Shown: piece after piece, positions 7,797-62,458 of the stretch
Layout of the letters: the number at the start of each line of letters is the position of its first letter
How positions within the stretch are numbered: the first letter of the stretch is position 1
Origin: a virus
DNA length: 64,000 nt
Virus record (IMG/VR): IMGVR_UViG_3300020048_003770
Span: 1 to 64,000 of that record
Strand: one strand, 5' to 3'
The notes under the pieces: model-generated
The model's input: only the letters and a program-made list of their open reading frames with translations
The model's database searches: none
What the model was told of the DNA's origin: nothing
Translations under genes and position numbers: made by a program

Positions 7797-7889
7797 ATGT
7801 TTTTCATCAATCAACAGAATAATCAACAGAACCAAAATTCTGAGAGCAATCTTGGAATGGTGGTACAGATTATTCTGCTTGCAGTTTAA
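7797..7889 (+). CDS. Asn/Gln-rich attenuator leader peptide MFFINQQNNQQNQNSESNLGMVVQIILLAV
   Basis: AAGGAG RBS; codons 5-14 all Asn/Gln; followed by terminator and tRNA-Asn, -Gln, -Asn. Confidence 0.88.
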   Translation: MFFINQQNNQQNQNSESNLGMVVQIILLAV

Positions 7890-7908
7890 TTCTCATACCT
7901 TCCATCCC

Positions 7909-7945
7909 AAGAGGCTCTCAAATCAACCTGAGAGCCTCTTTTTTT
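7909..7945 (+). terminator. Attenuator terminator 1
   Basis: AAGAGGCTCTCA/TGAGAGCCTCTT plus U tract; 5' arm can instead pair with leader 7841-7860. Confidence 0.9.
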
Positions 7946-7968
7946 GTTCTTTTATATAGTTTTTAAAT

Positions 7969-8042
7969 TCCCATATAGTGTAATGGTAGCACGAAATACT
8001 GTTAATATTTTAGTAATGGTCCGAATCCATTTTTGGGAACTA
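7969..8042 (+). tRNA. tRNA-Asn(GTT)
   Basis: Anticodon arm AAATA-CTGTTAA-TATTT; acceptor TCCCATA/TTTGGGA. Confidence 0.8.
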
Positions 8043-8050
8043 ATTTAAAT

Positions 8051-8124
8051 TGTCTCTTGATGTAAAGGTAGCATTCAGAACTTTGACTTCTGTCGTGAAC
8101 GTTCAAATCGTTCAGAGACAACCA
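8051..8124 (+). tRNA. tRNA-Gln(TTG)
   Basis: Acceptor TGTCTCT/AGAGACA, arm CAGAA-CTTTGAC-TTCTG, CCA. Confidence 0.9.
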
Positions 8125-8142
8125 CTTATGAAAATTTTTAAT

Positions 8143-8217
8143 TCCTTAGTAGCTCAATAGTAGAGCGTCGGTCTGTTACGCCGAGGGTTGTAGGGGCGGA
8201 GCCTACCTAAGGAGCCA
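8143..8217 (+). tRNA. tRNA-Asn(GTT)
   Basis: Acceptor TCCTTAG/CTAAGGA, arm TCGGT-CTGTTAC-GCCGA, CCA; unusual T loop. Confidence 0.85.
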
Positions 8218-8755
8218 TTTTTATTATGATTGACGATTTAGAAAAATGTCCATGTCGTAGATGGGATAAGAGTGGTCAAGCTCCTTATTTGATAGACATG
8301 CCTAAAATAATAGATGACAAAAATAAACCGAACCATAATTTAAAGGTTAATTGTAAATGTTTTTGAATTAGATATCATGTTTACAAACGGATCAACTGCG
8401 GAAAATAAATCGGCTTATGAATTAGATAAGTTAAAGGATAGGTTTGGCGGTTTCGAAGGACAAAATCAAGGTCCGAGTCATACAATGGAAAATCAATGGA
8501 TTCCTAAATTACCTGGACTATTTGCATATCCAGCTCAAGCGAGGAATAAAAATGATAAAACAGATTCAGAGCAAGTTGAATGAAGCCTTACTCAATTTTA
8601 AAATAAAAAGATTGAATAAGGAGTTGAAATCTATTGCAATTGAATTTGTGCAGAATAATAAAGCCATTAAAAAAGCCATCTCTCTTAAAACTCGACAAAA
8701 GGAATTGAAAATCAAATTTGTTGAATTAAAAAGAGAAATCGCTAAATTGGACAAG

Positions 8756-9598
8756 TCATTTATAGATAATTTTATAGAATCCGATATGTCCATTTAGTGG
8801 CAAATTAAAAGAAAAGCGTGTGGTATTTACGACGACATTTGAATAAAGTATTTTAAATTCATCATTTAATGAGTGAGACCTATAAACGTCCATTAGTAAA
8901 TGGTTTGCTGGTGTTGCAGATGTTTCTACGGTTATAGTTAATAGATTATCTAAGCCATTGACCGACATTTTAATTATATTGTTATTGATTTCGGATAAGT
9001 TAAACACGTTAGATAAGTCGAAACTTTGTATATTTAATAAGATTAGTTCTGCCATTTCGGATTGAGACAAGAATAAACGTTGAATGGATGGGTCAGATTC
9101 TGAAATGGTCGTTATATCTTTTTTATAAAAGCTAATGGCAGTATTTATTCCCTTTCTATTTGGCAAGAATGTAGGTGAGCAAGGGATGGCAGGTTGGGTT
9201 AACGGGGTTAGAGGATTTATAAGTGTATTAGTTTCAGTACGGTGAGTATGTTCTATGGTGTTTCCTATGTACCAAGCGTCATAAGAGTTTACGGGGTTTA
9301 ATTTATGACCGAACCATATATAGTTATTCCCATTGATTTGTTTATAGCATTTATGGTTGTTGATGGTATATGGTTGTATTGCATAATAGCCTAATTTATT
9401 GGAGATATCAGAGTCATTTATTGATTTGATAGTTCCGTTATAGAGTTTCCATCGGTCTTGCCATATTTTGATAGATTCATTGAATGTTCCGGAGACAACA
9501 AGATATTCTGATACATTATTAGTAACATCCGTTTGAGCGAAAGTCATTATTTTGAGTAATGGCAGTAATAAGAAGGCTAATATCAACAATTGTTTCAT
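8756..9598 (-). CDS. Secreted hypothetical protein
   Basis: Signal peptide MKQLLILAFLLLPLL; C-terminal GFYKI. Confidence 0.65.
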   Translation of the reverse strand: MKQLLILAFLLLPLLKIMTFAQTDVTNNVSEYLVVSGTFNESIKIWQDRWKLYNGTIKSINDSDISNKLGYYAIQPYTINNHKCYKQINGNNYIWFGHKLNPVNSYDAWYIGNTIEHTHRTETNTLINPLTPLTQPAIPCSPTFLPNRKGINTAISFYKKDITTISESDPSIQRLFLSQSEMAELILLNIQSFDLSNVFNLSEINNNIIKMSVNGLDNLLTITVETSATPANHLLMDVYRSHSLNDEFKILYSNVVVNTTRFSFNLPLNGHIGFYKIIYK

Positions 9599-9821
9599 TT
9601 TTAATATCGCTCCTTTTTAATGTTGAATTGACATTTCGACTTGTTTTACTAGTCATTCCAACTTAACGTCAAAAACTCCTTTAAAAAGAAATATTTTATT
9701 ATAGAAACTGGAAAAGATGAGATTGAAAGTCAAGGAGTTGTCTGAAAACGATAGTGTTGAATAGTAATTATCAATATATTATTATTTAATGCCCGTTCAG
9801 CATTTAATTATCAAAATATTA

Positions 9822-10598
9822 TCACTTAAAATATTCTGGAAGATATTTCGGGTTCATTGTTGTTATGAAATTATTTACCCAAGTCTTAGTGAAATCATTT
9901 AAATCTTCGCATTTATCTACGACTAATTTCCCATTTATCAAATCTATTTTTTCTTCGATGTCGGTTAGATATATTTGATATTTCTCCAATGTAATTTCAT
10001 TTATCTCTGTTTCTGGAGTAACATTGAAAAATGACATTGAATCAACTACTTTTTCCACCAGATTGAAATATCGCTCAGACGGCAATGCGTTTTTATGGTT
10101 CAAAATTGCATTCAGATATCCTTGTATCTTTTTAGCTTTATTTTTAGCTTTAGGAATGTGTTTATAGGATTTCTTTTCTGGCAAGTATTTTTTGTAAAGT
10201 TCTTCTTTCAATATTTTAGCGTAATCATTTTCATATTTTTCATGACAATTTGCGCATAAGACAACAATATATTGGGATTTACGTGATTTCAGTTCATATG
10301 GAAAATGCTTTCTATATTCGTAGGGGATAATATGATGTTTGGTTAAGAGTTCAAGATTTGTTTCGCCACAAACGATACATTTATTTTCTCTTAAGTCTTT
10401 CAGGTATTCGGTTTTCTCGCCGTCTCCTTTAGGTTGGAAATTGAGTTTGATAATCAATGGATCTTCTTTCAATATAGTTGCTAGGTTTCTATTTAGATAC
10501 CATTTTGCTCTTTTTTCGAGGCATCTGAACATAAGGTCGCCGTTTGGATTTAGAACCTGACAATTTCCATAAATAAGTTGTTTTCTTTTTGCATGCAT
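9822..10598 (-). CDS. HNH endonuclease-like protein resembling the EXD2 HNH-like domain
   Basis: YGNC..L.P.G..MFRC..K.AKWYL, CIVCG, HHIIPYEYRKHFP, LCANCH. Confidence 0.75.
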   Translation of the reverse strand: MHAKRKQLIYGNCQVLNPNGDLMFRCLEKRAKWYLNRNLATILKEDPLIIKLNFQPKGDGEKTEYLKDLRENKCIVCGETNLELLTKHHIIPYEYRKHFPYELKSRKSQYIVVLCANCHEKYENDYAKILKEELYKKYLPEKKSYKHIPKAKNKAKKIQGYLNAILNHKNALPSERYFNLVEKVVDSMSFFNVTPETEINEITLEKYQIYLTDIEEKIDLINGKLVVDKCEDLNDFTKTWVNNFITTMNPKYLPEYFK

Positions 10599-10664
10599 AT
10601 TATATTATACAGGATTATTTTATTCAATCAAGGAATTATATGGTTTAAGATATGAAGGAGACAA

Positions 10665-11060: not shown

Positions 11061-11169
11061 AAAAATCGGTGAAAATGCACAGATTAAAAACTGTGGTCCA
11101 CATAATTTAAAATGATGTATAATGAAACTGTTGAAGAAAAATAATTGTAATAATAGCGTCGAATTTATA

Positions 11170-11530: not shown

Positions 11531-11543
11531 AAAGGATTAAACT

Positions 11544-12032: not shown

Positions 12033-12055
12033 TATGGAAAATATTTGGAGGTTTT

Positions 12056-12955: not shown

Positions 12956-12959
12956 ATAA

Positions 12960-13313: not shown

Positions 13314-13335
13314 AAAGGAGAATCTTAATAACACA

Positions 13336-13860
13336 ATGCAACCATTCATAATAAATAAACGTACCAATTTCAGTGTCGTTAAACTTATTGACCAAGATTT
13401 GAAATTTCATGATAAAGTCTATATAGCAGATGCAATTAAAAAAGCTACAGAAGAACGTTTAGATTTAGTTTGTTTCCAGTTACCTTCTGATAATCAATTG
13501 GCGTTATGTAAGATTCTTGATTATGGAAAGTGGAAGTATAGAGAAGAAAAGAACAAGAAGAAAGTAGCGGCTAAAGTTATATCGGAAGTTAAAGAGATTA
13601 GATTTACGCCGGTTATAGGTGATAATGACGTTGATCATAAATTAAAACAGGTATTTGATTTTCTCGAAGAAGGGCATGAAGTTTTAATGGTTATGCAATT
13701 TAAGGGGATATATCGTCGTCATTTTGAGATTGGTGAAGAAAGAATGCAGTTCATATTGGATAAATGTAAACATGTTGGTGAAGTGGTAAACTATAAAAAG
13801 ATGAATAATCAAATTATGGTTAGGATGAAGAAACAAAAAGTAAAAAAGGAGGAGAAATGA
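13336..13860 (+). CDS. infC: Translation initiation factor IF-3
   Basis: LDLV...CKILDYGKWKY, VKEIRF.P.IG.ND...K, FLEEG. Confidence 0.92.
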   Translation: MQPFIINKRTNFSVVKLIDQDLKFHDKVYIADAIKKATEERLDLVCFQLPSDNQLALCKILDYGKWKYREEKNKKKVAAKVISEVKEIRFTPVIGDNDVDHKLKQVFDFLEEGHEVLMVMQFKGIYRRHFEIGEERMQFILDKCKHVGEVVNYKKMNNQIMVRMKKQKVKKEEK

Positions 13861-14915: not shown

Positions 14916-14924
14916 AGGAGTATT

Positions 14925-16104: not shown

Positions 16105-18657
16105 TTGTCTCAAAGTATTTTAGATCAACTATCATTATGGAATCAGAGTTTCAGTACTAATCCTTCAGAAGAGTCTCTTGTTAAACTTAGGAGGATTTTA
16201 GGAGAAATAAATCAAGATTTTGATAAAATTTCATATGTGATTAGAAAAGGATTCCGTTCCTTTTCAGAGGATCTTATTCCAATGGCGAGAGAAGTTTTGC
16301 CATTGATTAACAATATCGATGTTATGAAAAATTTATTAGATCAAACAAAATCGTTTCTTGAATCTAATAAAGCTTCATTAATGCAAATAGATGCTAATCG
16401 AACAATTGATGAAAACGCAGGATATTTTGCTCAACAAGAAATAAAGAACCGTCTTTTATCAGATAATCTATGGAGAGTGGCAGATTATTTAATTACCTCT
16501 TTACAAAATACCAATATATCAAATAAACATATTCAGTTTATTAATAAAATTGCCTCTAATGAGATGGGTAGCGTAGTAGAAAAAATAGAAGAGGCAGATG
16601 AGGAAAGACAGGGCAAAATTCAAAAGCAAACGATGTATTCAATTTCTAATGCTAGTGAGTTGACTTTAAAAGTATTACGCGAAACGCTACAAAATGCATC
16701 TGATGCGGTTTTAGATAGTAGTCTTTTGAATTCGGGAAATTATACGCCTACAATAGAGGTTTTTACTAATACATTTGCTTTAGACGAACCTGATGAAAAA
16801 GCAATGGATCTTGTCGTTAGAGACAATGGAATAGGAATGGATGTCGATACTCTCAGGAATAAATTTTTTGTATGGTTCGCAACTGGAAAAGAAGAAAAGA
16901 AGGGTGATACTGGTGGATTTGGTATTGGTAAAAGATTGATTTTAGAAACACCAGAACAAGGTTGGTCAATAGCTACGAGAAATAATTTTTCCAATAAATC
17001 TTCTAGAAACTCTTATTTGTCGAGGAATAAACATGAAGTTGTTGATGATTTGGATTTATATTTCCCAAAGGTTGAAGCAAAAAACGGAACGACTTTAGCT
17101 TTATATTATTTGCCAGCAACTCAAAGTTATACAATAGAAACACTTTGTAAATCATATGCTACAAACTCTAGATTGAAAATAATACTTAATGGCATTCCAA
17201 TAGTTCCTGCTTTTCCAATTGATAAATTACAATTAATTGAATCTGGAGGAGATGCTATTTCTACTTTAGTTAGTAAGAACGAATATCAAGAAGGAATTGT
17301 AAAAGATTTAGTAAATAAGCAAGGACAAGATTTTTTAAATAATTTAGGAGGATTACATTTTGATCATGAAGGTAGCTCGACAGATGTAAAGTTTTATGTC
17401 GCTCCCGCTTCAGATGGTTTTTCTTCGGGTAAATCTTATTTTATGATGAATGGTAATTATCAGTTTAGTCGTAATGCGAATTTTCCAAAGGTGAATATAA
17501 TTTGTGATATTAGGAGTACAGCTAGACCAGATGATTCAGGATATCCTATGGATCAAAGTCGAGATAACGTAAGAGAACCATATAATTCTCAAATAGATAG
17601 TGTATTGGGAAAAGTCAAAGTTCTTTTAGAACAAATAACTAAAAGTCAAATTTTTCAAGATGGTCTAGAGATATATACTGTTAATGGAACTAGTTCTCCA
17701 TTAAGTACATCAACATCAAAAAAACAAGATGGTAAAGATAAATTATTACATTTCATGGGTCATTCAGATCTATTTAATAAAGAGAAATCTAGCAAACAAG
17801 AAATAATTCAAAGCGTTCAAGAAGCGATAAGAGTTTCAGACAGCCCTGAAAAAGTCAAGATATTACAGGGATTAGTTAATACCGTAAGAGAAATGGATGA
17901 CGATAAAATAATAAAACATGATGATTTGGGTACAATTTTAGACGGATTATCTACGCCATGTAATATTAATATTCAAAAGAATTTTGTTTCTAAAGAAATT
18001 GCCTATCAACGAGTAGATTTGACAAAAAATCTTATAATATTATGGAAAGAGATTATTGAGCTTATTATAGGACAATCTAATTTTATGGTTGGAAGGTGGG
18101 ATGAGAAAGAATATATTCCTGGATTGATATATTCAGATGAAGCGCTTGCCTTGTATTCTCCACCTTCGCATGGGAGTACGTTTCATTGTCTATCAATAAA
18201 TCCGATAAGTGTAGCCGCTATGTTAAATCCTTCAAGATTTGAAAAGGTTATCAGACAACAAAAACCAGAAACTTTCAAGGATCAAGTTCAATTTGAAGAA
18301 GAAAGTAATATAAAAACCGACAATACTCCAACAATTAAACTTACCAATATGTTATATCATGAAGCGGTGCATGAAGTAACTCACTTTCTATTCCCAGATG
18401 CTTCTTACGATATGGTGAATTTTCATAAATATATAACAAAAATTGAATATTTATGTGCTCCCATTTATGATGATATAAGGTTGGCTGTAAAAAGATATTT
18501 ACAAGGAATTAAGAAAGATAGTAATGAATTAATAACGCAAATGAAAAAAGACATGAATAATAAAAATGTTGAATCGTCTGTGAAAAATAAATTGACAATT
18601 AAAATGTCTAAAAAGAAATGGGAATCTATTGGTAAAATAGCAGGATGGATTTATTGA
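16105..18657 (+). CDS. GHKL (HATPase_c) ATPase with C-terminal HEXXH motif
   Basis: RETLQNASDA, DNGIGM, GGFGIG; HEAVHEVTH; C-terminal KMSKKKWESIGKIAGW. Confidence 0.8.
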   Translation: MSQSILDQLSLWNQSFSTNPSEESLVKLRRILGEINQDFDKISYVIRKGFRSFSEDLIPMAREVLPLINNIDVMKNLLDQTKSFLESNKASLMQIDANRTIDENAGYFAQQEIKNRLLSDNLWRVADYLITSLQNTNISNKHIQFINKIASNEMGSVVEKIEEADEERQGKIQKQTMYSISNASELTLKVLRETLQNASDAVLDSSLLNSGNYTPTIEVFTNTFALDEPDEKAMDLVVRDNGIGMDVDTLRNKFFVWFATGKEEKKGDTGGFGIGKRLILETPEQGWSIATRNNFSNKSSRNSYLSRNKHEVVDDLDLYFPKVEAKNGTTLALYYLPATQSYTIETLCKSYATNSRLKIILNGIPIVPAFPIDKLQLIESGGDAISTLVSKNEYQEGIVKDLVNKQGQDFLNNLGGLHFDHEGSSTDVKFYVAPASDGFSSGKSYFMMNGNYQFSRNANFPKVNIICDIRSTARPDDSGYPMDQSRDNVREPYNSQIDSVLGKVKVLLEQITKSQIFQDGLEIYTVNGTSSPLSTSTSKKQDGKDKLLHFMGHSDLFNKEKSSKQEIIQSVQEAIRVSDSPEKVKILQGLVNTVREMDDDKIIKHDDLGTILDGLSTPCNINIQKNFVSKEIAYQRVDLTKNLIILWKEIIELIIGQSNFMVGRWDEKEYIPGLIYSDEALALYSPPSHGSTFHCLSINPISVAAMLNPSRFEKVIRQQKPETFKDQVQFEEESNIKTDNTPTIKLTNMLYHEAVHEVTHFLFPDASYDMVNFHKYITKIEYLCAPIYDDIRLAVKRYLQGIKKDSNELITQMKKDMNNKNVESSVKNKLTIKMSKKKWESIGKIAGWIY

Positions 18658-18754: not shown

Positions 18755-18844
18755 ATGAAAATGAACATAAATACAATCCATATCCCAGAACATATTGAGA
18801 TTCCCGAACCTATTGGTAAGGGTTATGGATGTGTTATGTCGTAA
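18755..18844 (+). CDS. Ile/His/Pro/Glu-rich attenuator leader peptide MKMNINTIHIPEHIEIPEPIGKGYGCVMS
   Basis: Codons 8-20 only I,H,P,E; followed by terminator and tRNA-His, -Ile, -Glu, -Pro. Confidence 0.88.
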   Translation: MKMNINTIHIPEHIEIPEPIGKGYGCVMS

Positions 18845-18866
18845 TTAGTAACATATCAATTAACAG

Positions 18867-18901
18867 AAACCCTTGCCGATAAAAGTCAGCAAGGGTTTTT
18901 T
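18867..18901 (+). terminator. Attenuator terminator 2
   Basis: AAACCCTTGC/GCAAGGGTTT plus U tract; 5' arm pairs alternatively with leader TTGGTAAGGGTT 18813-18824. Confidence 0.9.
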
Positions 18902-19080
18902 ATTGGAAAAATTAGGTTTAAAAATATGAAAAAGAAGATAAAAGATGGTAGCACTGAATGTTTTGGATTGTTAAGATTGTTAGTCTCAAGCGGTAAAGAA
19001 AGATTTGCGAAAACGACTATGAAAGAGATGCGTGAATATGGTAAAAAAATGGCGAAATGTATAGAGAGGATTTAAGTAAT

Positions 19081-19172
19081 GGTAATAGTGATGGAATTGG
19101 CTAAACATGCTAGACTGTGAATCTAGTGAGTTATAAAAACTCTTGCGGGTTCGAGCCCCGTCTATTACCCCA
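19081..19172 (+). tRNA. tRNA-His(GTG) with long variable arm
   Basis: G-1, acceptor GTAATAG/CTATTAC, C73, arm CTAGA-CTGTGAA-TCTAG, variable stem GAGT...ACTC. Confidence 0.88.
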
Positions 19173-19186
19173 ATTTTAGGAGAATT

Positions 19187-19546
19187 ATGAAAGACATGGA
19201 AAGAAAAGAAATCAGAGTTGAATTGGGAGACGTAGACTCATCTTATTTTGACGGAACTATAGACGATGTTATTGCGAGATTGAAGGCGTTAAAAGAAAAG
19301 TATTCAGATTATTCTATCTTAGACATTAGTTCTGAAGTCGGTTATGGATATTATGATAGCACTTTTGTTAAGTTTTCGTTAAGTGGAATAAGAATGGAAA
19401 CCGATGCAGAGTTTGAAAAAAGAACAGATGATTTGAAAAAGGCTAAGGAGGCGGCGAAGAAAAGGAAAATAACGATGTCTCAAAGGCAAGAGGAAAAAGA
19501 TAGGAAAGAATTCGAGAGACTGAAAGCTAAATACAAAGAGGAATAA
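19187..19546 (+). CDS. hypothetical protein
   Basis: AGGAG RBS; lies inside tRNA cluster. Confidence 0.65.
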   Translation: MKDMERKEIRVELGDVDSSYFDGTIDDVIARLKALKEKYSDYSILDISSEVGYGYYDSTFVKFSLSGIRMETDAEFEKRTDDLKKAKEAAKKRKITMSQRQEEKDRKEFERLKAKYKEE

Positions 19547-19548
19547 TT

Positions 19549-19740
19549 ATGAAAAAGTTTTGGAAAGAGTTTTGGATGGAAGATGTTAGAGAAATCACTG
19601 TTAATGCAACGATATTGATTGAAAATGCATTAAAAGAATTCAATATTGTGTTGACAGAGAAAGAAGAAGACGATATACATAATAAGATATGGGAAGTTTT
19701 AGAAAAAAGAAGTAATGGAGATTATCAAAATCATATGTGA
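19549..19740 (+). CDS. hypothetical protein
   Basis: 63-aa ORF with RBS. Confidence 0.5.
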   Translation: MKKFWKEFWMEDVREITVNATILIENALKEFNIVLTEKEEDDIHNKIWEVLEKRSNGDYQNHM

Positions 19741-19753
19741 ATGATATAAAAAC

Positions 19754-19828
19754 GGGCACTTCTTCTAAAGGTTAAGAAAATCGTCTGATACGCGATCAAT
19801 AATGGTTCGATTCCATTAGTGCCTACCA
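19754..19828 (+). tRNA. tRNA-Ile(GAT)
   Basis: Acceptor GGGCACT/AGTGCCT, arm ATCGT-CTGATAC-GCGAT, CCA. Confidence 0.88.
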
Positions 19829-19837
19829 ATTAAAAAT

Positions 19838-19915
19838 GTCGATGTAGACAAAATGGTTAAAGTCACCAGGCTTTCATCCTGGAATTTGCGGGTTCGAGTC
19901 CCGTCATCGATGCCA
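19838..19915 (+). tRNA. tRNA-Glu(TTC)
   Basis: Acceptor GTCGATG/CATCGAT, arm CCAGG-CTTTCAT-CCTGG, CCA. Confidence 0.92.
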
Positions 19916-19940
19916 GTTTTGAAAAAGTTTTAAAATTTAT

Positions 19941-20015
19941 TAGGGATGAGGTGTAATGGTTTGCACATCTCGTTTGGGTCGAGAGGGAGGAGTTCGAGTC
20001 TCACATCCTTAACCA
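19941..20015 (+). tRNA. tRNA-Pro(TGG)
   Basis: Arm TCTCG-TTTGGGT-CGAGA, acceptor AGGGATG/CATCCTT, CCA. Confidence 0.82.
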
Positions 20016-26107: not shown

Positions 26108-26191
26108 ATGAACACAAAACAGAACATATTTAGCTTTTTTAGCTTTAGACACCCTTCATGGACTTTGAAGGTTGGTTATGTTATGTTTTAA
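26108..26191 (+). CDS. Phe(/Ser)-rich attenuator leader peptide MNTKQNIFSFFSFRHPSWTLKVGYVMF
   Basis: FSFFSF run; followed by terminator and tRNA-Phe. Confidence 0.85.
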   Translation: MNTKQNIFSFFSFRHPSWTLKVGYVMF

Positions 26192-26213
26192 TATAATTAA
26201 AGCCAATTTAAAA

Positions 26214-26247
26214 AGAGCCCATGAATTAAGTTTCGTGGGCTTTTTTT
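26214..26247 (+). terminator. Attenuator terminator 3
   Basis: AGCCCATGAA/TTCGTGGGCT plus U tract; 5' arm pairs alternatively with TTCATGGACTTT 26155-26166. Confidence 0.88.
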
Positions 26248-26255
26248 GTTTTATT

Positions 26256-26331
26256 GGAGGTTGCGTAGGTATGGTTATTACGTCGAACTGAAAATTCGAA
26301 GAATCCGGTCCGATTCCGGAAGCCTCCACCA
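26256..26331 (+). tRNA. tRNA-Phe(GAA)
   Basis: Acceptor GGAGGTT/AGCCTCC, arm TCGAA-CTGAAAA-TTCGA, CCA. Confidence 0.88.
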
Positions 26332-26375: not shown

Positions 26376-28274
26376 ATGAGAATTTTCCGTCAAGCAATAA
26401 CTAAACAAATTAAAGAACAGGTTTCAACTAGAGAAGAATTACCGTTCAATAATATTTTTGATGATGATAACCTGAGAATTGTCATTCCTATTCAAAGTGA
26501 AAAAATTCAATATATACTGAATTCTCTTAAGCATGGACAAACAAAAACAGGGACGAAATACCAAATTGATTTAGATAATAAAATTGCCTATCGTTTAATC
26601 AAAAATGAGAGTGGAGACTTTGTTTTAGACCCAAGACCTATGCGATTAGGCAAGGTGATTCATAAAGAACTTGGCGACAAATGGGCAGACGCATGGAGTA
26701 TTGAAATTGCTAGTAAAGACAGTGAGGGTAAATCCATCATTTTGTCAAGATCTCCAGTCGATGTTGTCAGAATGAGTGATCATACTTGGGAGTCTTGTCA
26801 TAGCCCTGGTGAAAATTATTTTGACAGTGCAATACAGGAGGCTATAGGCGGTGGAGCGGTAGCTTATGTTGTAAATAATCAAGATATTGATGATTTTATA
26901 AAACGAAATGGCAACGACGAAATGGCGCTTCAATCAGAAGAAATTTTCAGAGACGACGATAGGGGCATTGAAGGCATTGTCCCATTGTCAAGAATAAGAG
27001 TAAACAGATACGTGAGTGATGATGGAGATGAACTAGCCTTGCCGGTTACGAGGACTTATGGCGAAAAATCTTCTGGATTTCTTGATACTGTAACTGATTG
27101 GCTTAAGGAAAAACAGTCCAAAACGATTGATTATGATAGATTGAATATGAAACAATATGAGAGAACTGGAGGAATGTACGCAGATGATCCAGATCGTAAG
27201 ATAATGACTAATTTCTTTGGTAATGCTAAAGGTGTTACAAATGATTTACCTCACAAAGGAGGAGAATCGAGACTTCAAATATGGGATACCGAATTATATC
27301 AGATGAAAGAAGTTATAAATGAACAGTTAAAGCATTCTAGTGTTACTTATTTTATCGATGAGGTAGATAACCATGTTTTTATTTCCGGTGAAGGATATAT
27401 TGATTTTGCATTTCGTGGATATGTCGATGAAACTCAAGATGGTTTAGAGGATTTATTTAATAATTTTAAAAGCACGTTACAAGTTAATTATTGTGGCTAT
27501 GTTGATGAAATTGGCATTACAAATGAAAATGGAATAGCTAGGTTATCTTTGAGAATTACAATGGATCAAAACGATTCTATTAATGATCCTGATGATTGGC
27601 AAAGTAGAGCGGAAAGATTTGTATATTATGAAGAAACATTTTATCATCAAGATATTGAACATTTAAAAAACATTTTAATTGAAAAGTCGATATTGGAAAG
27701 CGTTGATGAGGTAGAAGATAAAGAAGAGTATTTGGCGAATCATATAAATGATGGCAATGGTATTCATAGCGGCGGGAATGATATTGATTTGTTTTTCAAT
27801 ACCGGAATTAAACTTCCAAAAATGACGGCAGGGGTAAATCAACCTTTAAAGGATCTTGTAAGCAATGTGTTTCTTGAATCGTTGCAAAGGAATGTAAATG
27901 CCAAATATTCAAATGTAAGTGGACAAATGAATTTTGATTTTTACGCCAATCAAGAGCTACAGTATAAAGACCCAAAATTTCATATGGATATGTCAATCGT
28001 AAAGCCGAATTATTACATTTCTTTTGCGAATTATGATTATCTTGCCAATTTTCGCATACAAATTCCATATTCTGAAATTTATCGTTTAGGTAAGACATAT
28101 TTTGATTTATTGTTGAAATCTTATGATGCTATATATAATGATATATATCGTGCGACTAAACAGTATATGGATAATTATAATTTGACTGTGAACAAGGGAA
28201 CAACAGCGGGGAAACTGAATTGGTATGATTTATGTAAATTGTCCCATTCAATTAACAAAAGGGAGATGGAATGA
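26376..28274 (+). CDS. Large hypothetical protein, possibly virion-associated
   Basis: MRIFRQA N-terminus, RMSD...WESCH motif, C-terminal NWY motif. Confidence 0.6.
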   Translation: MRIFRQAITKQIKEQVSTREELPFNNIFDDDNLRIVIPIQSEKIQYILNSLKHGQTKTGTKYQIDLDNKIAYRLIKNESGDFVLDPRPMRLGKVIHKELGDKWADAWSIEIASKDSEGKSIILSRSPVDVVRMSDHTWESCHSPGENYFDSAIQEAIGGGAVAYVVNNQDIDDFIKRNGNDEMALQSEEIFRDDDRGIEGIVPLSRIRVNRYVSDDGDELALPVTRTYGEKSSGFLDTVTDWLKEKQSKTIDYDRLNMKQYERTGGMYADDPDRKIMTNFFGNAKGVTNDLPHKGGESRLQIWDTELYQMKEVINEQLKHSSVTYFIDEVDNHVFISGEGYIDFAFRGYVDETQDGLEDLFNNFKSTLQVNYCGYVDEIGITNENGIARLSLRITMDQNDSINDPDDWQSRAERFVYYEETFYHQDIEHLKNILIEKSILESVDEVEDKEEYLANHINDGNGIHSGGNDIDLFFNTGIKLPKMTAGVNQPLKDLVSNVFLESLQRNVNAKYSNVSGQMNFDFYANQELQYKDPKFHMDMSIVKPNYYISFANYDYLANFRIQIPYSEIYRLGKTYFDLLLKSYDAIYNDIYRATKQYMDNYNLTVNKGTTAGKLNWYDLCKLSHSINKREME

Positions 28275-29584
28275 TAAAGAGCTATGTTTTGGATACGAAT
28301 GTGTTATTGTCAGACCCAGAAGCGATGTTTAATTTTGAAGATAACAATGTAATAATACCAATCGGAGTTATTGAAGAATTAGATCGGTTTAAAAAAGACC
28401 AAAGCGAGTTGGGTAAAAATGCTCGTCAAATATCTAGATTATTGGATGATTTAAGGCTTAAAGGTGATTTGAGAGAAGGTGTTAAGGTCGGTGACGGTAA
28501 GGTAATGGTACGCTATAATGGCAATTTAGAGTCTTACCTTAAAGAGAATAATGTTGATTTACATGTAATTCATATTGCTCAAAAGACGATGGACAGTGAC
28601 CCTGAAACGCCTTGCATTGTTGTTTCGAGAGATGTAAACGTAAGAATAAGAGCAAATGCGTTGGGGATAAAAGCGGAAAATTATGAAAGCGACCAAATCC
28701 CTCACGAAGAGATAGATAAAGGGTATAGTGAAATATTATTCGATGATAAATCGTTTGATGAGTTTGCGCAAGAGGGTAAAGTTAGAATAAACGATGTAAT
28801 GGATGAAGAAACCAAGAGACAAATCTTCCCTAATGAATATTTTATGATTTACAATAATAGTGGGTCTACATTGTTGGGTAGAGTCGATCCATATGTAACT
28901 GTTTTAAGGAAGTTAATATCTTGTCCTAACGGGATTGGTGTTATGCCAAAGAATAAAGAACAGTCATTTTTAATTGATGCGCTTTTAGATAATGATATAA
29001 AATTGGTATCCATTGTTGGAATTGCAGGCTCTGGGAAAACTATATTAAGTTCGGCAATTGGCTATTATTTGGTAGTTAATAAAAAAGATTACAAGCGATT
29101 ATTGATAAGTCGTCCTGTTTTTCCAATGGGTAAAGACTTAGGTTATTTACCAGGATCGGTCGATGAAAAGCTTGCGCCATGGATGTGTCCGATATATGAT
29201 GCGTTTGATGTAATTAAAGAACACGCTAATTCTAATGTCAAATCGGGCGTTACTGGGAAAAGCATTGTTGATGGGAATAGCGTAGTGGTGGAGCCATTGA
29301 CATACATTAGAGGAAGAAGCATTCGTGACCAGTTTCTTATTGTCGATGAATCTCAAAACTTAAATGTCCATGAGATTAAAACAATTATAACTAGAGCCGG
29401 AGATAACACGAAAGTTGTATTGACTGGCGATATATATCAAATAGACAATCCCTATATTGATAGTTTGTCGAATGGTTTATCTAGTGTTGTAAAGAATATG
29501 AGAGATTCAAAATTATCCGCTCATATAGTATTATCAAAGGGCGTTCGGTCTGAATTGGCGGAAGAAGCATCTCGTAAACTATAA
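28271..29584 (+). CDS. phoH: PhoH2 (PIN domain plus PhoH ATPase)
   Basis: VLDTNVLL, GIAGSGKT, LGYLPG, YIRGRS, DESQN, GD..QID. Confidence 0.93.
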   Translation: MIKSYVLDTNVLLSDPEAMFNFEDNNVIIPIGVIEELDRFKKDQSELGKNARQISRLLDDLRLKGDLREGVKVGDGKVMVRYNGNLESYLKENNVDLHVIHIAQKTMDSDPETPCIVVSRDVNVRIRANALGIKAENYESDQIPHEEIDKGYSEILFDDKSFDEFAQEGKVRINDVMDEETKRQIFPNEYFMIYNNSGSTLLGRVDPYVTVLRKLISCPNGIGVMPKNKEQSFLIDALLDNDIKLVSIVGIAGSGKTILSSAIGYYLVVNKKDYKRLLISRPVFPMGKDLGYLPGSVDEKLAPWMCPIYDAFDVIKEHANSNVKSGVTGKSIVDGNSVVVEPLTYIRGRSIRDQFLIVDESQNLNVHEIKTIITRAGDNTKVVLTGDIYQIDNPYIDSLSNGLSSVVKNMRDSKLSAHIVLSKGVRSELAEEASRKL

Positions 29585-46609: not shown

Positions 46610-46702
46610 ATGAATATGAACAAGCAAATAATAGGTATAGGAATAGCGGGAGCCTGCGGCGGAGCTGCAAGGCTACGGACTTTCTATGTCTGTTTATGCT
46701 AA
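46610..46702 (+). CDS. Ile(ATA)/Gly/Ala-rich attenuator leader peptide MNMNKQIIGIGIAGACGGAARLRTFYVCLC
   Basis: Codons 7-20 are I,G,A except one C; all four Ile are ATA; downstream tRNA-Ala, -Gly and a TAT-anticodon RNA. Confidence 0.87.
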   Translation: MNMNKQIIGIGIAGACGGAARLRTFYVCLC

Positions 46703-46724
46703 ATGATATAACAGATTAAAAAAT

Positions 46725-46760
46725 AGAGAGTCCGATAAACTAATGGTTTGTCGGACTTTT
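46725..46760 (+). terminator. Attenuator terminator 4
   Basis: AGAGTCCGATAAAC/GTTTGTCGGACTTT; 5' arm pairs alternatively with CGGACTTTCTAT 46676-46687. Confidence 0.85.
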
Positions 46761-46970
46761 GCTTTATAAGGAGAAAATGGGTAGGAAAAAGAGTCAAAAA
46801 AGGAAAAACACGAATGTCGTAAAGAACGAAATGGTTTTTCTTAGGTGCTTTGAATTGCTGGGAGCATAAACGGTTCTGTCTTCTCTAAAACAAAGGCGGA
46901 ACCGAATGAAACAGGAAGGAAACAATTTTATGAATATCAAACGCAAGGACTGTATAAATGTGAAAGATGG

Positions 46971-47213
46971 ATGTCTGGTAAACTCGATCCGTACTTTTTT
47001 GTTCTTAAACATGGTAAACATCAATTTGATTTAATAACTAGCGAATATGAGCAGAGATACGAAAACGGTTTGGATTGGGATGGATTATATCAGCTATGGA
47101 TGGATTGGAAAGGAGATAGATGGTTGTTGAGGCACGTTTTGAAATGGATGAAAAATTTGCCAGATTGGATAGATAAGGAAAGTGAAGAAATAGATTTGAA
47201 TATGGGGGCGTAG
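46971..47213 (+). CDS. hypothetical protein
   Basis: 80-aa ORF ending inside tRNA-Ala 5' end. Confidence 0.5.
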   Translation: MSGKLDPYFFVLKHGKHQFDLITSEYEQRYENGLDWDGLYQLWMDWKGDRWLLRHVLKWMKNLPDWIDKESEEIDLNMGA

Positions 47214-47277
47214 CTTAGTTGGCTAAAGCGTCTGATTTGCATTCAGAAGATCGTCGGTTCGACCCCGGTCGCCTCCA
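47204..47277 (+). tRNA. tRNA-Ala(TGC)
   Basis: GGGGGCG/CGCCTCC with G3:U70, arm TCTGA-TTTGCAT-TCAGA. Confidence 0.92.
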
Positions 47278-47371
47278 AGTTGACAAGCAGATTACTTCCA
47301 CGTAGTGTCAACTGGTAACTAAGAAATTAGGCTAAAATCTGCAAGTAACAAAAGAGAATAGAAAGGATAAT

Positions 47372-47620
47372 ATGAAGAAAGTTAATACATGTTTAACGGT
47401 ATATGATATGTTGGGACAGGCGTTGAACCATGAATGCAGCGGATCTAAAAGGTTTTCGCCTGATAATACCAAAGAGGATGTCGGAATAAAATGTCTGGAA
47501 TGTGACGACTCATTCAAGATATCCATTCGTAGACTGCGTAATACTATGAGAGATCCAAGATTGACTGAATTAGTTAAACAATATAAATACATGGATTTGT
47601 TGAAGAAGTTTGTTATTTAA
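47372..47620 (+). CDS. hypothetical protein
   Basis: RBS, CLEC. Confidence 0.5.
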   Translation: MKKVNTCLTVYDMLGQALNHECSGSKRFSPDNTKEDVGIKCLECDDSFKISIRRLRNTMRDPRLTELVKQYKYMDLLKKFVI

Positions 47621-47626
47621 AAATAT

Positions 47627-47701
47627 GCATCTTAGGTGTTTATGGACACACGCTAGGCTTCCAACCTTGAGTAATGGGATCGTTACCCATAAGATGCTCC
47701 A
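47627..47701 (+). tRNA. tRNA-Gly(TCC)
   Basis: GCATCTT/AAGATGC-T-CCA, loop CTTCCAA. Confidence 0.85.
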
Positions 47702-47937
47702 ATTTTAAATTAAGGATATTATGTTTAAATCATATAAGATCTTAAAAGAATGCAAATTAGAAGAGTCTAATTTGATTCAAATGTTGCGTGAAAATAAAGA
47801 AGGATTGACTATAGATAGGATTATGTTAATGGGTTTTGACAAATGGAACTCGCTTAACAAATTATTGGCTATGCAGAAGGTTAAAGGGATTAAACAAAAA
47901 AATGATCCTTTTGTTAAAGAGACTGTTATCGTTTCAT

Positions 47938-48022
47938 GCGGGAGTAACTCACCAATCTTATGAATTGGGCAGTATAATTAGAGTAATGGTGCATGTTGGT
48001 TCAAGTCCAATCTCCCGTACCA
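47938..48022 (+). tRNA. Non-canonical tRNA-Ile(TAT), anticodon hairpin nested in D arm
   Basis: GCGGGAG/CTCCCGT-A-CCA, T arm GTTGG-TTCAAGT-CCAAT, hairpin CCAAT-CTTATGA-ATTGG inside ACTC/GAGT. Confidence 0.7.
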
Positions 48023-54058: not shown

Positions 54059-54192
54059 GGGGAAGTAGCCAAATGGAAAGGCACTATTATTCGGAAATAG
54101 CAAACAGCGATTATTACTTAAATTGTTTAATAGCAATTTCTTATCTAAACGCTTACAAACTTTTGGGGGTTCGATTCCCTCCTTCCCCACCA
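54059..54192 (+). ncRNA. tRNA-like/Y-like RNA 1 (about 70-nt module in variable arm)
   Basis: GGGGAAG/CTTCCCC-A-CCA, D arm, T arm, module AGCG...ACTT-stem-CTTAT...CGCT-TACAAAC. Confidence 0.8.
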
Positions 54193-54282: not shown

Positions 54283-54418
54283 GGAGAGGACGCCTAACGG
54301 TAGGGCACTATTCAGTTAAAATAGCAAAAATACAGCGATTATGCCTTCAATTGTTTAACCGCAATTGCTTTATGAACGCTTACAAACATATTAGGTTCGA
54401 CTCCTAAACTCTCCACCA
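54283..54418 (+). ncRNA. tRNA-like/Y-like RNA 2 (paralog of RNA 1)
   Basis: GGAGAG/CTCTCC-A-CCA, same module, different anticodon loop. Confidence 0.8.
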
Positions 54419-56051: not shown

Positions 56052-56064
56052 AGAAAGGATTAAT

Positions 56065-56478: not shown

Positions 56479-56488
56479 AAGGAGAATT

Positions 56489-58640: not shown

Positions 58641-58655
58641 ATTCAAGGAGAATAT

Positions 58656-59174: not shown

Positions 59175-59176
59175 TT

Positions 59177-59719: not shown

Positions 59720-60129
59720 AAATAACTAAAACAGCAAGCGGTAAACAAACGATTAAGATTTCCAAGAAAGAATGGGCAAGTATTGGTAAAAAAGCGGGTT
59801 GGTTGGATGGAGACGTTATGAAAGTTGTAAAAGAAGACATTCAGTATCAAGCCGCTCCATATGGTTATATCGCTACTATACCAAAAGGAACCGCCGTTGT
59901 ACCTGCATCTAATCTAGAGATGGGTGGATATTGGGCTGAAGAGTGGGATGGAATGGACGAAAAGGCAAGATCATGGTTGGATAATTATGGCTTTCATCTT
60001 TTAGAAAGCGATGTCGAAGATGTTGACGATACTTATCACTCAGAACCTAATCACCAAGATGTTTTAGATAGAAGAGCGGATGCAGAAGATGAGGCGGAAT
60101 ATAATAAATGGATGTCAGAACGAGGATAA
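59716..60129 (+). CDS. KTA/AGW-leader protein 4
   Basis: Same leader. Confidence 0.75.
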   Translation: MKITKTASGKQTIKISKKEWASIGKKAGWLDGDVMKVVKEDIQYQAAPYGYIATIPKGTAVVPASNLEMGGYWAEEWDGMDEKARSWLDNYGFHLLESDVEDVDDTYHSEPNHQDVLDRRADAEDEAEYNKWMSERG

Positions 60130-60209
60130 TTATTTAAAATAGTTCTTGATTTTAAAACAGAACAAGCCCTTGACATACTCCCCATGAATAAATTCAGGGG
60201 ATTCTAGGC

Positions 60210-61382
60210 TCAAGCGAGGGCAGCTTGACTCACGTCAAGTCTGACACCCTCTCGCCAGCAGGATGATGTCCCATCCTTTAAATCATTTAAACCTCTCTTA
60301 ACTATATTTATAGCTGCGTTCATATCTCTATTATGAGAAGTCAAACACTCAGGACAAACCCACTCTCTATCTTTTTGAGTTAATTCATTGTTCTTATATC
60401 CACAGGAACTGCATGTTTTCGTACTGGCAAACCATTTATCAATATGGTGAATAATTTTTCCATATTCCAAAGCTTTATTTTCCAATATTCCCATGAAATT
60501 AGAAAATCCAAGATCATTTATCTTCTTCCCATGTTCTTTTTTCATTGAACTGATATCCAAAGTTTCAAAAAACATAACATCATAAGTTTCACATAATTGT
60601 TTTGCAAGTTTGAAATGATAATCTAATCTTTTATTTGCAACTTTCTTATGTAATTTAGCCAATTGATGTTTTGCTTGTTGGTAATTATTTGAACCTTCAG
60701 TCTTTCTTGATAATGTCTTGTTCGCTTTGGATATCTTGTTTCTATTTTGTTTGAAAAATAGTGGAGCTTTTATTTTGGTTCCATCATCTTTAACTAGAAA
60801 ATCCGTACATCCGAAATCAAAGCCTGCGGTTTCACCCGTCATGGAAATTAATTCAGAATCATTTTCTAATTCGCAAACAATATAAACATACCAATCCTCT
60901 GATTTATCTTTTTTAAGTGTAATGCATTTTATTTCTCCTTTTGTTTCTCTTGATTTCCAGTATTTGTAAATTCTGTTATTTATTTTGATTTGGTTGAACG
61001 GCAATATTTTGTATCCATCTTGTTTGAAGGTAATGCTTGCATAGGATCTAACTTTTTTGAATGATGGAGGGCTTACTTTTCTAGTTTTGTTTTTCTTTTT
61101 GCAATTATCAAAGAATGCCTTGTATCCTTTTTGGATTCTATCTGTAATTTCTTGAATAGCTTGAGCGTTTACTTTTTTCCAGAATGAATATTTTTCTAAT
61201 TTTTTCAGTTTTGTGATATGTTTTTGGAGTTGAAATTTATTGAGGGATTTTCCGAATAGTTTGTAATATCTATAGTGGAGAGCGATGCAGTGGTTATAGA
61301 TATTGCCTGCTATTTTGGTTTGTTCATTCAGGAATTTGTTTTTCTTTGAATGATATAATTTATATTTGAATGTCTTTATCAT
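60210..61382 (-). CDS. tnpB: TnpB RNA-guided endonuclease
   Basis: KTFKYKL HTH, GFDFG, FFETL, HNRDMNAAINI, Zn ribbon. Confidence 0.94.
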   Translation of the reverse strand: MIKTFKYKLYHSKKNKFLNEQTKIAGNIYNHCIALHYRYYKLFGKSLNKFQLQKHITKLKKLEKYSFWKKVNAQAIQEITDRIQKGYKAFFDNCKKKNKTRKVSPPSFKKVRSYASITFKQDGYKILPFNQIKINNRIYKYWKSRETKGEIKCITLKKDKSEDWYVYIVCELENDSELISMTGETAGFDFGCTDFLVKDDGTKIKAPLFFKQNRNKISKANKTLSRKTEGSNNYQQAKHQLAKLHKKVANKRLDYHFKLAKQLCETYDVMFFETLDISSMKKEHGKKINDLGFSNFMGILENKALEYGKIIHHIDKWFASTKTCSSCGYKNNELTQKDREWVCPECLTSHNRDMNAAINIVKRGLNDLKDGTSSCWREGVRLDVSQAALA

Positions 61383-61539
61383 TATCTTTTAGAACCTTGA
61401 GGTATTTTTTCAGGAACATTTTAAATGCGCCTGAAATATTTATGGCGTAATTATTTTTAAGTTCTTCCATGGCGTCGAAGTCTTCTTGATTTAATCTGAA
61501 GGCATATGGGTATTGTTTTTTAACATAATTATTTTTCAT
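61360..61539 (-). CDS. Small ribbon-helix-helix-like protein (59 aa)
   Basis: MKNNYVKKQYPYAFRLNQEDFDAMEELKNNYAINISGAFKMFL..., overlaps tnpB start. Confidence 0.55.
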   Translation of the reverse strand: MKNNYVKKQYPYAFRLNQEDFDAMEELKNNYAINISGAFKMFLKKYLKVLKDNDKDIQI

Positions 61540-61682
61540 GTTTATTTATTCAATACTTTTCAAATAATTCCTTTATTTGTAAATGAGAAAATAATTTAAA
61601 ATAGTTCTTGATTATTAAAAGGAGTTATGTATAATGATTAGGAACATTAAATAGATTCGAGATTTGGAGAAGGAATAAAATT

Positions 61683-61760
61683 ATGTATATTAAAACGAAA
61701 ACAGTAGAAAAAGCAACGGTATTCAAAAAAACCGTTATGGGCTTATTCTGTTTTGTTTAA
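61683..61760 (+). CDS. Lys/Thr/Val-rich attenuator leader peptide MYIKTKTVEKATVFKKTVMGLFCFV
   Basis: 12 of codons 4-18 are K,T,V; followed by terminator and tRNA-Lys, -Val, -Thr, -Thr. Confidence 0.88.
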   Translation: MYIKTKTVEKATVFKKTVMGLFCFV

Positions 61761-61777
61761 GTACAAAATAGATTTTT

Positions 61778-61810
61778 AAAAGCCCGTAAGTGTTACTTGC
61801 GGGCTTTTTT
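61778..61810 (+). terminator. Attenuator terminator 5
   Basis: AAAAGCCCGTAAGT/ACTTGCGGGCTTTT; 5' arm pairs alternatively with TTATGGGCTT 61735-61744. Confidence 0.9.
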
Positions 61811-61847
61811 GTTTTATTTAATGGTAATTTGGGGGATAGAATAAAAT

Positions 61848-61922
61848 GGAAGTGTAGTTCAACGGTAGAACAACGGTCTTTTAAACCGTGAAATGATGGT
61901 TCGATTCCATCCACTTCTACCA
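61848..61922 (+). tRNA. tRNA-Lys(TTT)
   Basis: Arm ACGGT-CTTTTAA-ACCGT, CCA. Confidence 0.92.
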
Positions 61923-61964
61923 TTTTTAAAGGAAACGATAAGAAGGAATATGATATAATATAAT

Positions 61965-62038
61965 GGGCGATTAGTTCAATGGTAGAACTCTGTCTTTACA
62001 CGGCAGTTACGGGAGTTCGATTCTCTCATCGCCTACCA
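61965..62038 (+). tRNA. tRNA-Val(TAC)
   Basis: Arm CTGTC-TTTACAC-GGCAG, CCA. Confidence 0.92.
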
Positions 62039-62297
62039 TTTTAAAAAAGAAAGGGAGTTGTAATGAAAATATTAAATGTAGATACTAAGATCCACGAAGC
62101 GATAGGAATGACTATATTGACGAAAGAAGATGTCGCTAGCAGAAGATTGGGAGAACCTATGGAGATATGGCCGAAAGACTGTTCATTTAATCCATCGGGA
62201 ATCTCTTTGGAAGAAGCTAGAGGAGCAATGAGGAAAATGTAAAGAACATAGAGGGGAGAAGGTTGTAGTTGAAGAAATTAAAACATTATTTAAAAAC

Positions 62298-62373
62298 GCC
62301 GGTTTAGCTCAGTTGGTAGAGCAATAGTTTTGTAAACTATAGGTCGTCGGATCGTACCCGTCAACCGGCTCCA
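62298..62373 (+). tRNA. tRNA-Thr(TGT)
   Basis: GCCGGTT/AACCGGC, loop TTTGTAA, CCA. Confidence 0.92.
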
Positions 62374-62382
62374 TTTTTTAAT

Positions 62383-62458
62383 GCCACCATAGCTCAGTTG
62401 GTAGAGCAATAGTTTCGTAAACTTTAGGTCGCAGGTTCGATGCTTGCTGGTGGCTCCA
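62383..62458 (+). tRNA. tRNA-Thr(CGT)
   Basis: GCCACCA/TGGTGGC, loop TTCGTAA, CCA. Confidence 0.9.

Follow-up and report, generated by a model that had tools for sequence, protein, structure and literature searches.

A phage genome fragment carries five short leader open reading frames (ORFs), each followed by an intrinsic terminator and transfer RNA (tRNA) genes, and the codons repeated in each leader are predominantly those read by the tRNAs encoded behind it. The sequence analysed, hereafter the window, comprises positions 1 to 64,000 of one virus contig of 161,288 bp, IMG/VR record IMGVR_UViG_3300020048_003770. We consider it likely that each of these cassettes is a ribosome-mediated transcription attenuator of the trp/his type, placing tRNA supply under demand-driven feedback. 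An earlier sequence-only reading had described five cassettes of one layout and proposed that they are attenuators; all five were read directly where it had placed them, and each sequence-level prediction of the attenuator that could be tested held.

No close relative was found among GenBank phages by megablast or tblastn, and single-protein searches of IMG/VR recovered no relatives. Relatives were obtained instead via a large protein collection and look-up of their contigs. They come from JGI metagenomes and share about 80% protein identity with the phage studied here. One of them is a contig of 367,912 bp (the 368-kb relative, examined in 20-kb pieces), from which it follows that the present contig is a fragment of a huge phage.

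Anatomy of the cassettes

The five units, L1 to L5, share one order: a sigma-70-type promoter, an ORF of 25-30 codons that begins with ATG, an interval of 17-26 nt, a strong intrinsic terminator (stem free energies of -16.8 to -22.1 kcal/mol) and tRNA genes. The promoter that the sequence-only reading had assigned to each cassette was recovered in every case, those of L1, L4 and L5 by a promoter tool with a 16-18-nt spacer rule and those of L2 and L3 by eye, as the extended -10 element TGgTATAAT. Its list of downstream tRNAs stood as well, the gene it gave as Ile(TAT) being an Ile(UAU)-like gene that is canonical in relatives. The Shine-Dalgarno sequences of L1 and L5 are good.

L1
7700-7727 (+): promoter, TTGATT, 16-nt spacer, TATAAT
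7797-7889 (+): leader ORF, 30 codons, range including the stop; AAGGAG 7 nt upstream
7840-7861 (+): antiterminator 5' strand, within the leader ORF; partner 7901-7921; duplex -25.8 kcal/mol, z -5.8
7909-7948 (+): intrinsic terminator, 12-bp stem (7909-7940) and T run
7969-8217 (+): tRNAs Asn(GUU), Gln(UUG), Asn(GUU)

L2
18685-18693 (+): promoter, extended -10 TGgTATAAT, by eye; TTGCTT 15 nt upstream of the -10 hexamer; conserved in relatives
18761-18844 (+): leader ORF, 27 codons; alternative in-frame ATG at 18755
18810-18837 (+): antiterminator 5' strand; partner 18860-18881
18867-18906 (+): intrinsic terminator (stem 18867-18898)
19082-20015 (+): operon with tRNA-His(GUG), two small ORFs, tRNA-Ile(GAU), tRNA-Glu(UUC), tRNA-Pro(UGG)

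L3
26081-26089 (+): promoter, extended -10 TGgTATAAT; relatives have a -35 element at 17-nt spacing
26108-26191 (+): leader ORF, 27 codons
26154-26178 (+): antiterminator 5' strand; partner 26201-26226
26209-26255 (+): intrinsic terminator, 17-bp stem (26209-26248)
26256-26331 (+): tRNA-Phe(GAA)

L4
46530-46557 (+): promoter, TTGATT, 16-nt spacer, TACAAT, with TG preceding the -10
46610-46702 (+): leader ORF, 30 codons
46669-46688 (+): antiterminator 5' strand; partner 46722-46741
46729-46765 (+): terminator (stem 46729-46757, -16.9 kcal/mol)
47203-48022 (+): operon with tRNA-Ala(UGC), ORF, tRNA-Gly(UCC), ORF, Ile(UAU)-like tRNA gene

L5
61608-61635 (+): promoter, TTGATT, 16-nt spacer, TATAAT
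61683-61760 (+): leader ORF, 25 codons
61734-61745 (+): antiterminator 5' strand; partner 61779-61790
61778-61816 (+): intrinsic terminator (stem 61778-61808)
61848-62458 (+): operon with tRNA-Lys(UUU), tRNA-Val(UAC), small ORF, tRNA-Thr(UGU), tRNA-Thr(CGU)

Codons 5-14 of L1 are an unbroken series of ten Asn/Gln codons, codons 6-18 of L2 are exclusively Ile, His, Pro or Glu, and four TTT codons fall among codons 8-13 of L3. In L4, codons 7-20 encode Ile, Gly or Ala save for one Cys, and twelve of codons 4-18 of L5 are Lys (all AAA), Thr or Val. The leader peptides are hydrophobic in their C-terminal halves.

Among the gated tRNA genes, tRNA-Pro(UGG) of the L2 operon scores 37.3 bits against Rfam and the Ile(UAU)-like gene of the L4 operon (window 47938-48019) 31.1 bits; the latter has no D arm, and its variable region contains an insert of 23 nt. 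Relatives have a canonical 78-nt tRNA-Ile(UAU) at the matching place (L117:3842-3919), and the window copy may be degenerate or non-canonical. The small ORFs between gated tRNAs (18926-19078, 19180-19745, 46777-47200, 47372-47620, 47721-47963 and 62063-62242) would be induced together with them; the 82-residue product of 47372-47620 is conserved in relatives and has zinc-ribbon-like Cys pairs and no Pfam match.

Leader codons match the downstream tRNAs

To avoid circularity, both strands of the whole 161-kb contig were scanned blind with structure criteria only, namely an ATG ORF of 14-50 codons ending at most 60 nt from a hairpin with a T run, at -9 kcal/mol or lower; matches within long genes or at their ends were set aside. 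Exactly five intergenic ORF-terminator units remained, with ORFs of 25-30 codons, and 5/5 lie upstream of tRNAs. The scan for a short ORF and terminator ahead of tRNAs that the sequence-only reading had called for, made here over the 161-kb contig, returned the same five units only.

A codon counted as cognate if an anticodon of the operon could read it under standard wobble rules. Expected counts were taken from the phage's own codon usage, and empirical P values from sliding windows of the same length in phage ORFs.

L1: 12 of 29 codons cognate, 2.6 expected; count reached by 0 of 39088 sliding windows
L2: 11 of 26 codons cognate, 4.2 expected; count reached by 54 of 39613
L3: 5 of 26 codons cognate, 1.1 expected; count reached by 218 of 39613
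L4: 9 of 29 codons cognate, 2.5 expected; count reached by 32 of 39088
L5: 10 of 24 codons cognate, 3.3 expected; count reached by 89 of 39963

The empirical P per leader ranges from <3e-5 to 6e-3, and Fisher's combined P for the five is 1.4e-12. The enrichment is confined to frame 0, the other two frames being at background, and the cognate codons are concentrated in codons 4-20. When leaders were permuted over operons (n = 120), the true pairing scored 48 and was the sole maximum (second 39, mean 17.4). The proposed match between sensor amino acids and downstream tRNAs is thus borne out both by in-frame-only enrichment and by the rank of the true pairing. A combined P of about 1e-29 over 15 units, from the window and elsewhere, is illustrative, because the units are partly non-independent and the extra ones were chosen for concordance.

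The match is finer than the amino-acid level and reaches isoacceptor resolution. The Ile codons are ATA in 4/4 cases in L4, upstream of Ile(UAU), as against 1/6 in L2, upstream of Ile(GAU), where ATC/ATT occurs five times and ATA once (Fisher P 0.024). Lys is always AAA ahead of Lys(UUU), GGA predominates ahead of Gly(UCC), and ACA/ACG stand ahead of Thr(UGU)/Thr(CGU).

Antiterminator structures and the ribosome

When the RNA was folded minus the terminator 3' arm, all five units formed a long hairpin in which the coding segment after the sensor codons pairs with the terminator 5' arm. The stop codon sits in the apical part of this hairpin. Both features agree with the complementarity between the leader 3' segment and its own terminator that had been read from the sequence. 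The cognate leader-terminator duplexes have energies of -14.7 to -25.8 kcal/mol, with z-scores against shuffled leaders of -3.5 to -5.8 for the window's five and a weakest value of -2.1 among ten units tested. Over these ten, each cognate duplex is stronger than any that the terminator forms with the leaders of other units, and the elements always follow one another in the same way: sensor codons, antiterminator 5' strand, stop, 9-22 nt, and an antiterminator 3' strand overlapping the terminator.

This regularity bears on the suggestion that the sensor is RNA only, binding tRNA in the manner of a T-box, or that the terminators are constitutive and the ORF-like sequence untranslated. Such a reading would fit the lack of a Shine-Dalgarno sequence at L3 and the fact that leader translation is deduced. 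We judge it very improbable, as the matching triplets lie in one frame from ATG to stop, the position of the stop is fixed relative to the antiterminator in all ten units, and runs of 5 to 18 different specifier triplets are unlike any T-box. In addition, a scan of the whole window gave tRNA matches only, with no T-box or other Rfam cis-regulatory family at the gathering threshold.

To model the ribosome, partition functions were computed with its footprint masked. For the window's five, the antiterminator forms without any ribosome and with a stall in the middle of the sensor run, and a stall at the last sensor codon weakens it. Read-through, not superattenuation, is predicted for the window units when translation fails entirely. 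In the X23 and X28 units of other phages, which have a 1:2-type helix (pairing of the sensor run with the antiterminator 5' strand), sequestration of the terminator arm is 0.04-0.10 with no ribosome, 0.90 with a sensor-run stall and 0.07-0.13 with a ribosome on the stop codon; in the model these units are textbook three-state switches.

Since the window's five antiterminators are predicted to form without a ribosome, global loss of translation would also give read-through. The cassettes could accordingly be read as switches on translation status with no codon specificity, any translation of the leader causing termination and its loss, late in infection or on host shut-off, opening the operons. 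That reading leaves unexplained the in-frame enrichment for codons of the leader's own operon, which is kept despite drift of the peptide and recurs in unrelated phages with other tRNA sets, and we regard it as improbable.

Weighing the attenuator interpretation

Several observations weigh against interpreting the cassettes as attenuators. The Shine-Dalgarno sequences of L2 and L4 are weak and L3 has none, and the T run of the L4 terminator is weak and interrupted (TTTGCTTT) and was not called by the consensus tool. Under strict wobble rules the sensor codons CCC, CCT, GCC, GCT, GGT, GGC, ACC and GTT are not read by the operon anticodons. Such a leader is missing from no fewer than eight of the window's tRNA or tRNA-like genes, two of which have promoters of their own. 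A clear 1:2-type protector helix is present only in L2 among the window's five, where the sensor run is able to pair with the antiterminator 5' strand, and is not evident in L1, L3, L4 or L5. The folding of both conformers bore out the earlier proposal in part: the antiterminator hairpin appears when the terminator 3' arm is absent, but full-length minimum-energy folds always keep the terminator, so that the switch must be kinetic. Finally, a ribosome masked at the stop codon does not remove the antiterminator in the window's five units, and we make no claim that thermodynamics alone accounts for the switch; termination under fast translation would therefore need tight or kinetic coupling of transcription and translation, or steric effects.

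Translation of the leaders, the efficiency of the terminators, the sense in which the switch works and the feedback loop are inferences from sequence, on which we base the following suggested course of events. Transcription would initiate at the sigma-70-type promoter and a ribosome would load onto the leader of 25-30 codons. Decoding at normal speed would let the ribosome trail the polymerase over the antiterminator 5' strand to the stop, and the terminator would form before the tRNA genes. If the cognate aminoacyl-tRNAs were scarce, uncharged or destroyed, decoding would slow and the ribosome would stall early in the sensor run, leaving the antiterminator strand free to pair with the terminator 5' arm and allowing read-through into the tRNAs and interleaved ORFs. 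The induced tRNAs would read the sensor codons, and their accumulation would relieve the stall and close the operon. As the output tRNAs decode the sensor codons, the capacity to decode each codon set would be under negative feedback. The trigger could be starvation, degradation of host tRNA, a mismatch between phage and host codon usage, or cleavage by anticodon nucleases.

The last of these triggers raises the possibility that the same attenuator was selected as a counter-defence, the leaders acting as tripwires for anticodon nucleases (PrrC, RloC, PARIS, the colicin E5/D type, VapC/MazF-type toxins) and inducing nuclease-insensitive replacements. Known targets of anticodon nucleases are the tRNAs for Lys, Glu, Gln, Asn, Tyr, His, Asp and Arg. 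In favour of this reading, the gated sets are rich in these, and sensing is at the codon or isoacceptor level, not the amino-acid level. A relative also encodes an Apyc1-like anti-Pycsar protein with a metallo-beta-lactamase fold (L120:13652-14440) about 2.5 kb downstream of its L5 cassette, an indication that these phages invest in counter-defence. On the other hand, Phe alone, or Ala, Gly and Ile, are not classical nuclease targets, and sequence cannot tell cleavage from codon-usage mismatch, host shut-off or starvation. General supply-and-demand feedback accounts for the data equally well as a purpose in cleavage and replacement, and selection as a counter-defence seems to us possible though rather unlikely.

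Conservation and a sixth leader

In relatives the cassettes have 89-100% nucleotide identity, compared with about 76-84% for most neighbouring genes; the overall range for the cassettes is 89-97%. L1 is nearly invariant from ATG to terminator, with zero substitutions over about 90 nt, synonymous sites included, and such frozen synonymous sites suggest that RNA and codons are constrained. The nucleotide sequence of L4 shows 100% identity in contigs where the flanking protein is only 44-49% identical.

The variable leaders, L5 and L2, keep their composition and not their peptide sequence. In the L5 homologue of the 368-kb relative, 11 residues of the sensor region differ and are still Lys, Thr or Val, ahead of tRNAs for Lys, Val, Thr and Lys. 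Variants of L2 in relatives have Ile, Glu and Pro swapped between positions, and one of them has another terminator together with a matching alteration in the leader 3' end. These patterns also speak to the idea that the concordance arose by chance, or that the leaders are small functional peptides incidentally upstream of tRNA genes. The hydrophobic C-terminal halves and the perfect conservation of the L1 and L4 peptides would suit functional peptides. Given the combined P of about 1e-12 in the window, the retention of composition while the L5 and L2 peptides drift, and the frozen synonymous sites, we find this explanation scarcely credible.

An out-of-sample test was offered by the first tRNA block of the window, for which no leader is visible because the contig starts there.

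1-461 (+): first tRNA block, Asp, odd tRNA-like gene, Trp, Arg(CCU)

A leader was predicted for this block and sought at the homologous block of the 368-kb relative. A sixth leader of 29 codons is present there (L018:3205-3294), with Asp, Met, Arg and Trp at codons 6-15. The unit (L018:3205-3351) has a promoter upstream and a terminator of -19.1 kcal/mol, and its tRNAs are Met, Asp, Arg(ACG), an Arg(UCU)-like gene (anticodon by eye), Trp and Arg(CCU). Concordance between leader and tRNAs, which the sequence-only reading had expected to persist in related phages, is therefore seen both in the exchange of residues among cognates in L5 and L2 and in this additional leader.

The odd gene between Asp and Trp in the window (210-286) is a sub-threshold tRNA-like gene of 24.9 bits; its homologue in the relative reads Arg(UCU) and has a long insert (L018, ~3640-3740).

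Other phage lineages

A profile search with a marker protein gave 59 IMG/VR loci at 24-43% identity. In one group of these, the X family, the leader has 20 or 27 codons and is enriched in Asn, Lys, Glu, Thr, Tyr, Pro and Gln; a terminator follows, then tRNAs for exactly these amino acids. Its antiterminator helix is 97% paired over six variants, against 47-62% for slid controls, and includes two compensatory pairs. An exact-pattern scan of IMG/VR with a 17-nt leader end gave 28 matches, of which about 9 are true and the rest chance. On the L068 contig, a Gln/Tyr/Thr-rich leader stands ahead of tRNA-Gln. Between its terminator and that gene, L068:6150-6255 has a good acceptor stem, a T arm and a GUA anticodon loop; it was called as tRNA-Tyr by neither ARAGORN nor Rfam, and may be a non-canonical tRNA-Tyr.

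Two concordant units occur in the Caulobacter phage phiCbK (JX100813), with terminators near 49.7 kb and 51.5 kb (L108, ~2550-2590 and ~4270-4310). One has a 45-codon ORF rich in Ala, Leu, Ser, Pro and Lys and a terminator, then tRNAs for Pro, Pro, Lys, Lys, Leu (three), Ala and Ser (two); the second has a 32-codon ORF with Gln, Phe, Val and Ile and a terminator, then Phe, Val, Ile (two), Val, Gln (two) and Ile. The phiCbK block of Trp, Gly, Gly, Glu and Asp tRNAs has no short leader upstream. There, a longer ORF ends in a C-terminal run of Glu, Asp, Ala, Gly and Trp (L108:250-545; JX100813 ~47450-47745), and the tail of an ordinary gene may serve as the sensor.

No convincing leader was found in the tRNA-bearing marker-protein relatives L024, L033, L057, L077 and others; the design is limited to certain lineages. 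In the tRNA regions of T5 the same scan gave none of these units. Its single candidate in those of KVP40 carries no information, as tRNAs for almost all amino acids lie downstream.

Genomic context

The window has a G+C content of about 33% and nearly every gene is on the + strand. Encoded in it are a DnaE-type polymerase, UvsX, SbcCD, RecJ, an NAD-dependent ligase, a PIN-PhoH fusion, a RecD2-like helicase and IF3, the IF3 and PIN-PhoH fusion genes lying at 13336-13860 and 28271-29584. The contig has no tRNA gene outside the window. Eighteen genes are called by ARAGORN, to which Rfam adds a second set of tRNA-like genes, tRNA-Pro(UGG) and the Ile(UAU)-like gene.

Among the tRNA-like genes are two paralogues (window 54059-54189 and ~54283-54413) with their own TTGATT/TATAAT promoter directly upstream and no leader ORF. 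In both, the anticodon stem is followed by a conserved insert of about 60 nt. The first reaches 46.9 bits with the Rfam tRNA model and is detected by ARAGORN in intron mode only. Fragments resembling tRNA T arm and acceptor ends occur at window 63200-63390.

IS605-type TnpB genes (OrfB_IS605 plus a Cas12f1-like TNB domain) repeatedly adjoin the tRNA cassettes, and one TnpB insertion in the 368-kb relative truncated tRNA-Phe, parting it from its leader.

989-2137 (-), window: TnpB gene
60210-61382 (-), window: TnpB gene
L007:8460-9644: TnpB gene
L016:1361-2560: TnpB gene
L013:5975-7105: TnpB gene

Between thyX and the L2 promoter, the window encodes an 850-residue protein with a weak HATPase_c match (16105-18657); the gene is missing from that place in all relatives examined.

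Discussion

Like trpL, hisL, pheL, leuL, thrL and the multivalent ilvGMEDA and thr leaders, the cassettes combine a short leader with a run of regulatory codons, an antiterminator overlapping the terminator 5' arm, and a stop codon placed so that a finishing ribosome favours termination; as in the multivalent leaders, codons for several amino acids are mixed. Classical attenuators gate enzymes, whereas these cassettes gate tRNA genes and small ORFs of no assigned function. They are set apart in that the gated genes are tRNAs, not genes of biosynthesis, transport or charging. They are also viral, occur in 5-6 copies per genome, and would have a product that acts straight back on the sensor. Since codon choice tracks the anticodons (ATA as opposed to ATC/ATT), the cassettes would report isoacceptor supply, and since four of the five window units lack an evident 1:2 protector helix, superattenuation is not predicted for them, unlike trpL.

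The nearest precedent for attenuation of translation supply is the pheST attenuator, in which the pheM leader with its Phe codons controls a component of the decoding machinery. Its target is an aminoacyl-tRNA synthetase at a single cellular locus, in contrast to the tRNA genes controlled here. T-box riboswitches likewise sense the state of a specific tRNA and toggle between terminator and antiterminator, and the genes they control serve tRNA charging; they bind uncharged tRNA directly, with one specifier codon, a conserved T-box sequence and no ribosome, whereas the cassettes have an ORF of many codons. The tRNA arrays of T4, T5, vibriophages and mycobacteriophages are thought, as would be the case here, to sustain translation upon depletion or cleavage of host tRNAs. 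Work on those arrays concerns which tRNAs are carried, and the cassettes concern codon-sensing control of tRNA transcription. Full-text searches of an incomplete body of literature yielded no published description of leader-peptide attenuation of phage tRNA genes, which is not evidence that none exists. Attenuation of this class is well known; its use on tRNA genes, its isoacceptor resolution and its multi-copy, checklist-like use in phages appear to be new.

Textbook control of tRNA genes is by promoter strength, growth rate and the stringent response only. If the attenuator interpretation is true, transcription of tRNA genes can also be controlled by the decoding rate of their own codons, a direct feedback between supply and demand. 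It would help to explain why phage tRNAs occur in small, arbitrary-looking blocks interspersed with promoters and terminators, and how a phage is spared the expense of tRNAs already provided by its host. It would likewise tie phage tRNAs to tRNA-targeting defences in a way that is concrete and open to testing. The leaders would be compact natural sensors of tRNA availability, specific to codons and reusable as reporters, and the occurrence of the design in cultured phages of the phiCbK type makes experiments possible now.

More tentatively, many tRNA-rich phages may run a codon-by-codon surveillance, in which a checklist leader at each tRNA operon signals in real time whether its codons are still decoded by the host, and which detects and repairs specific tRNA depletion, including cleavage by anticodon nucleases, through self-limiting bursts of replacement tRNAs. 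If such surveillance exists, it would constitute a general and unrecognised layer of phage-host conflict, and the genes described here would be the first tRNA genes known to be regulated by their own decoding activity.

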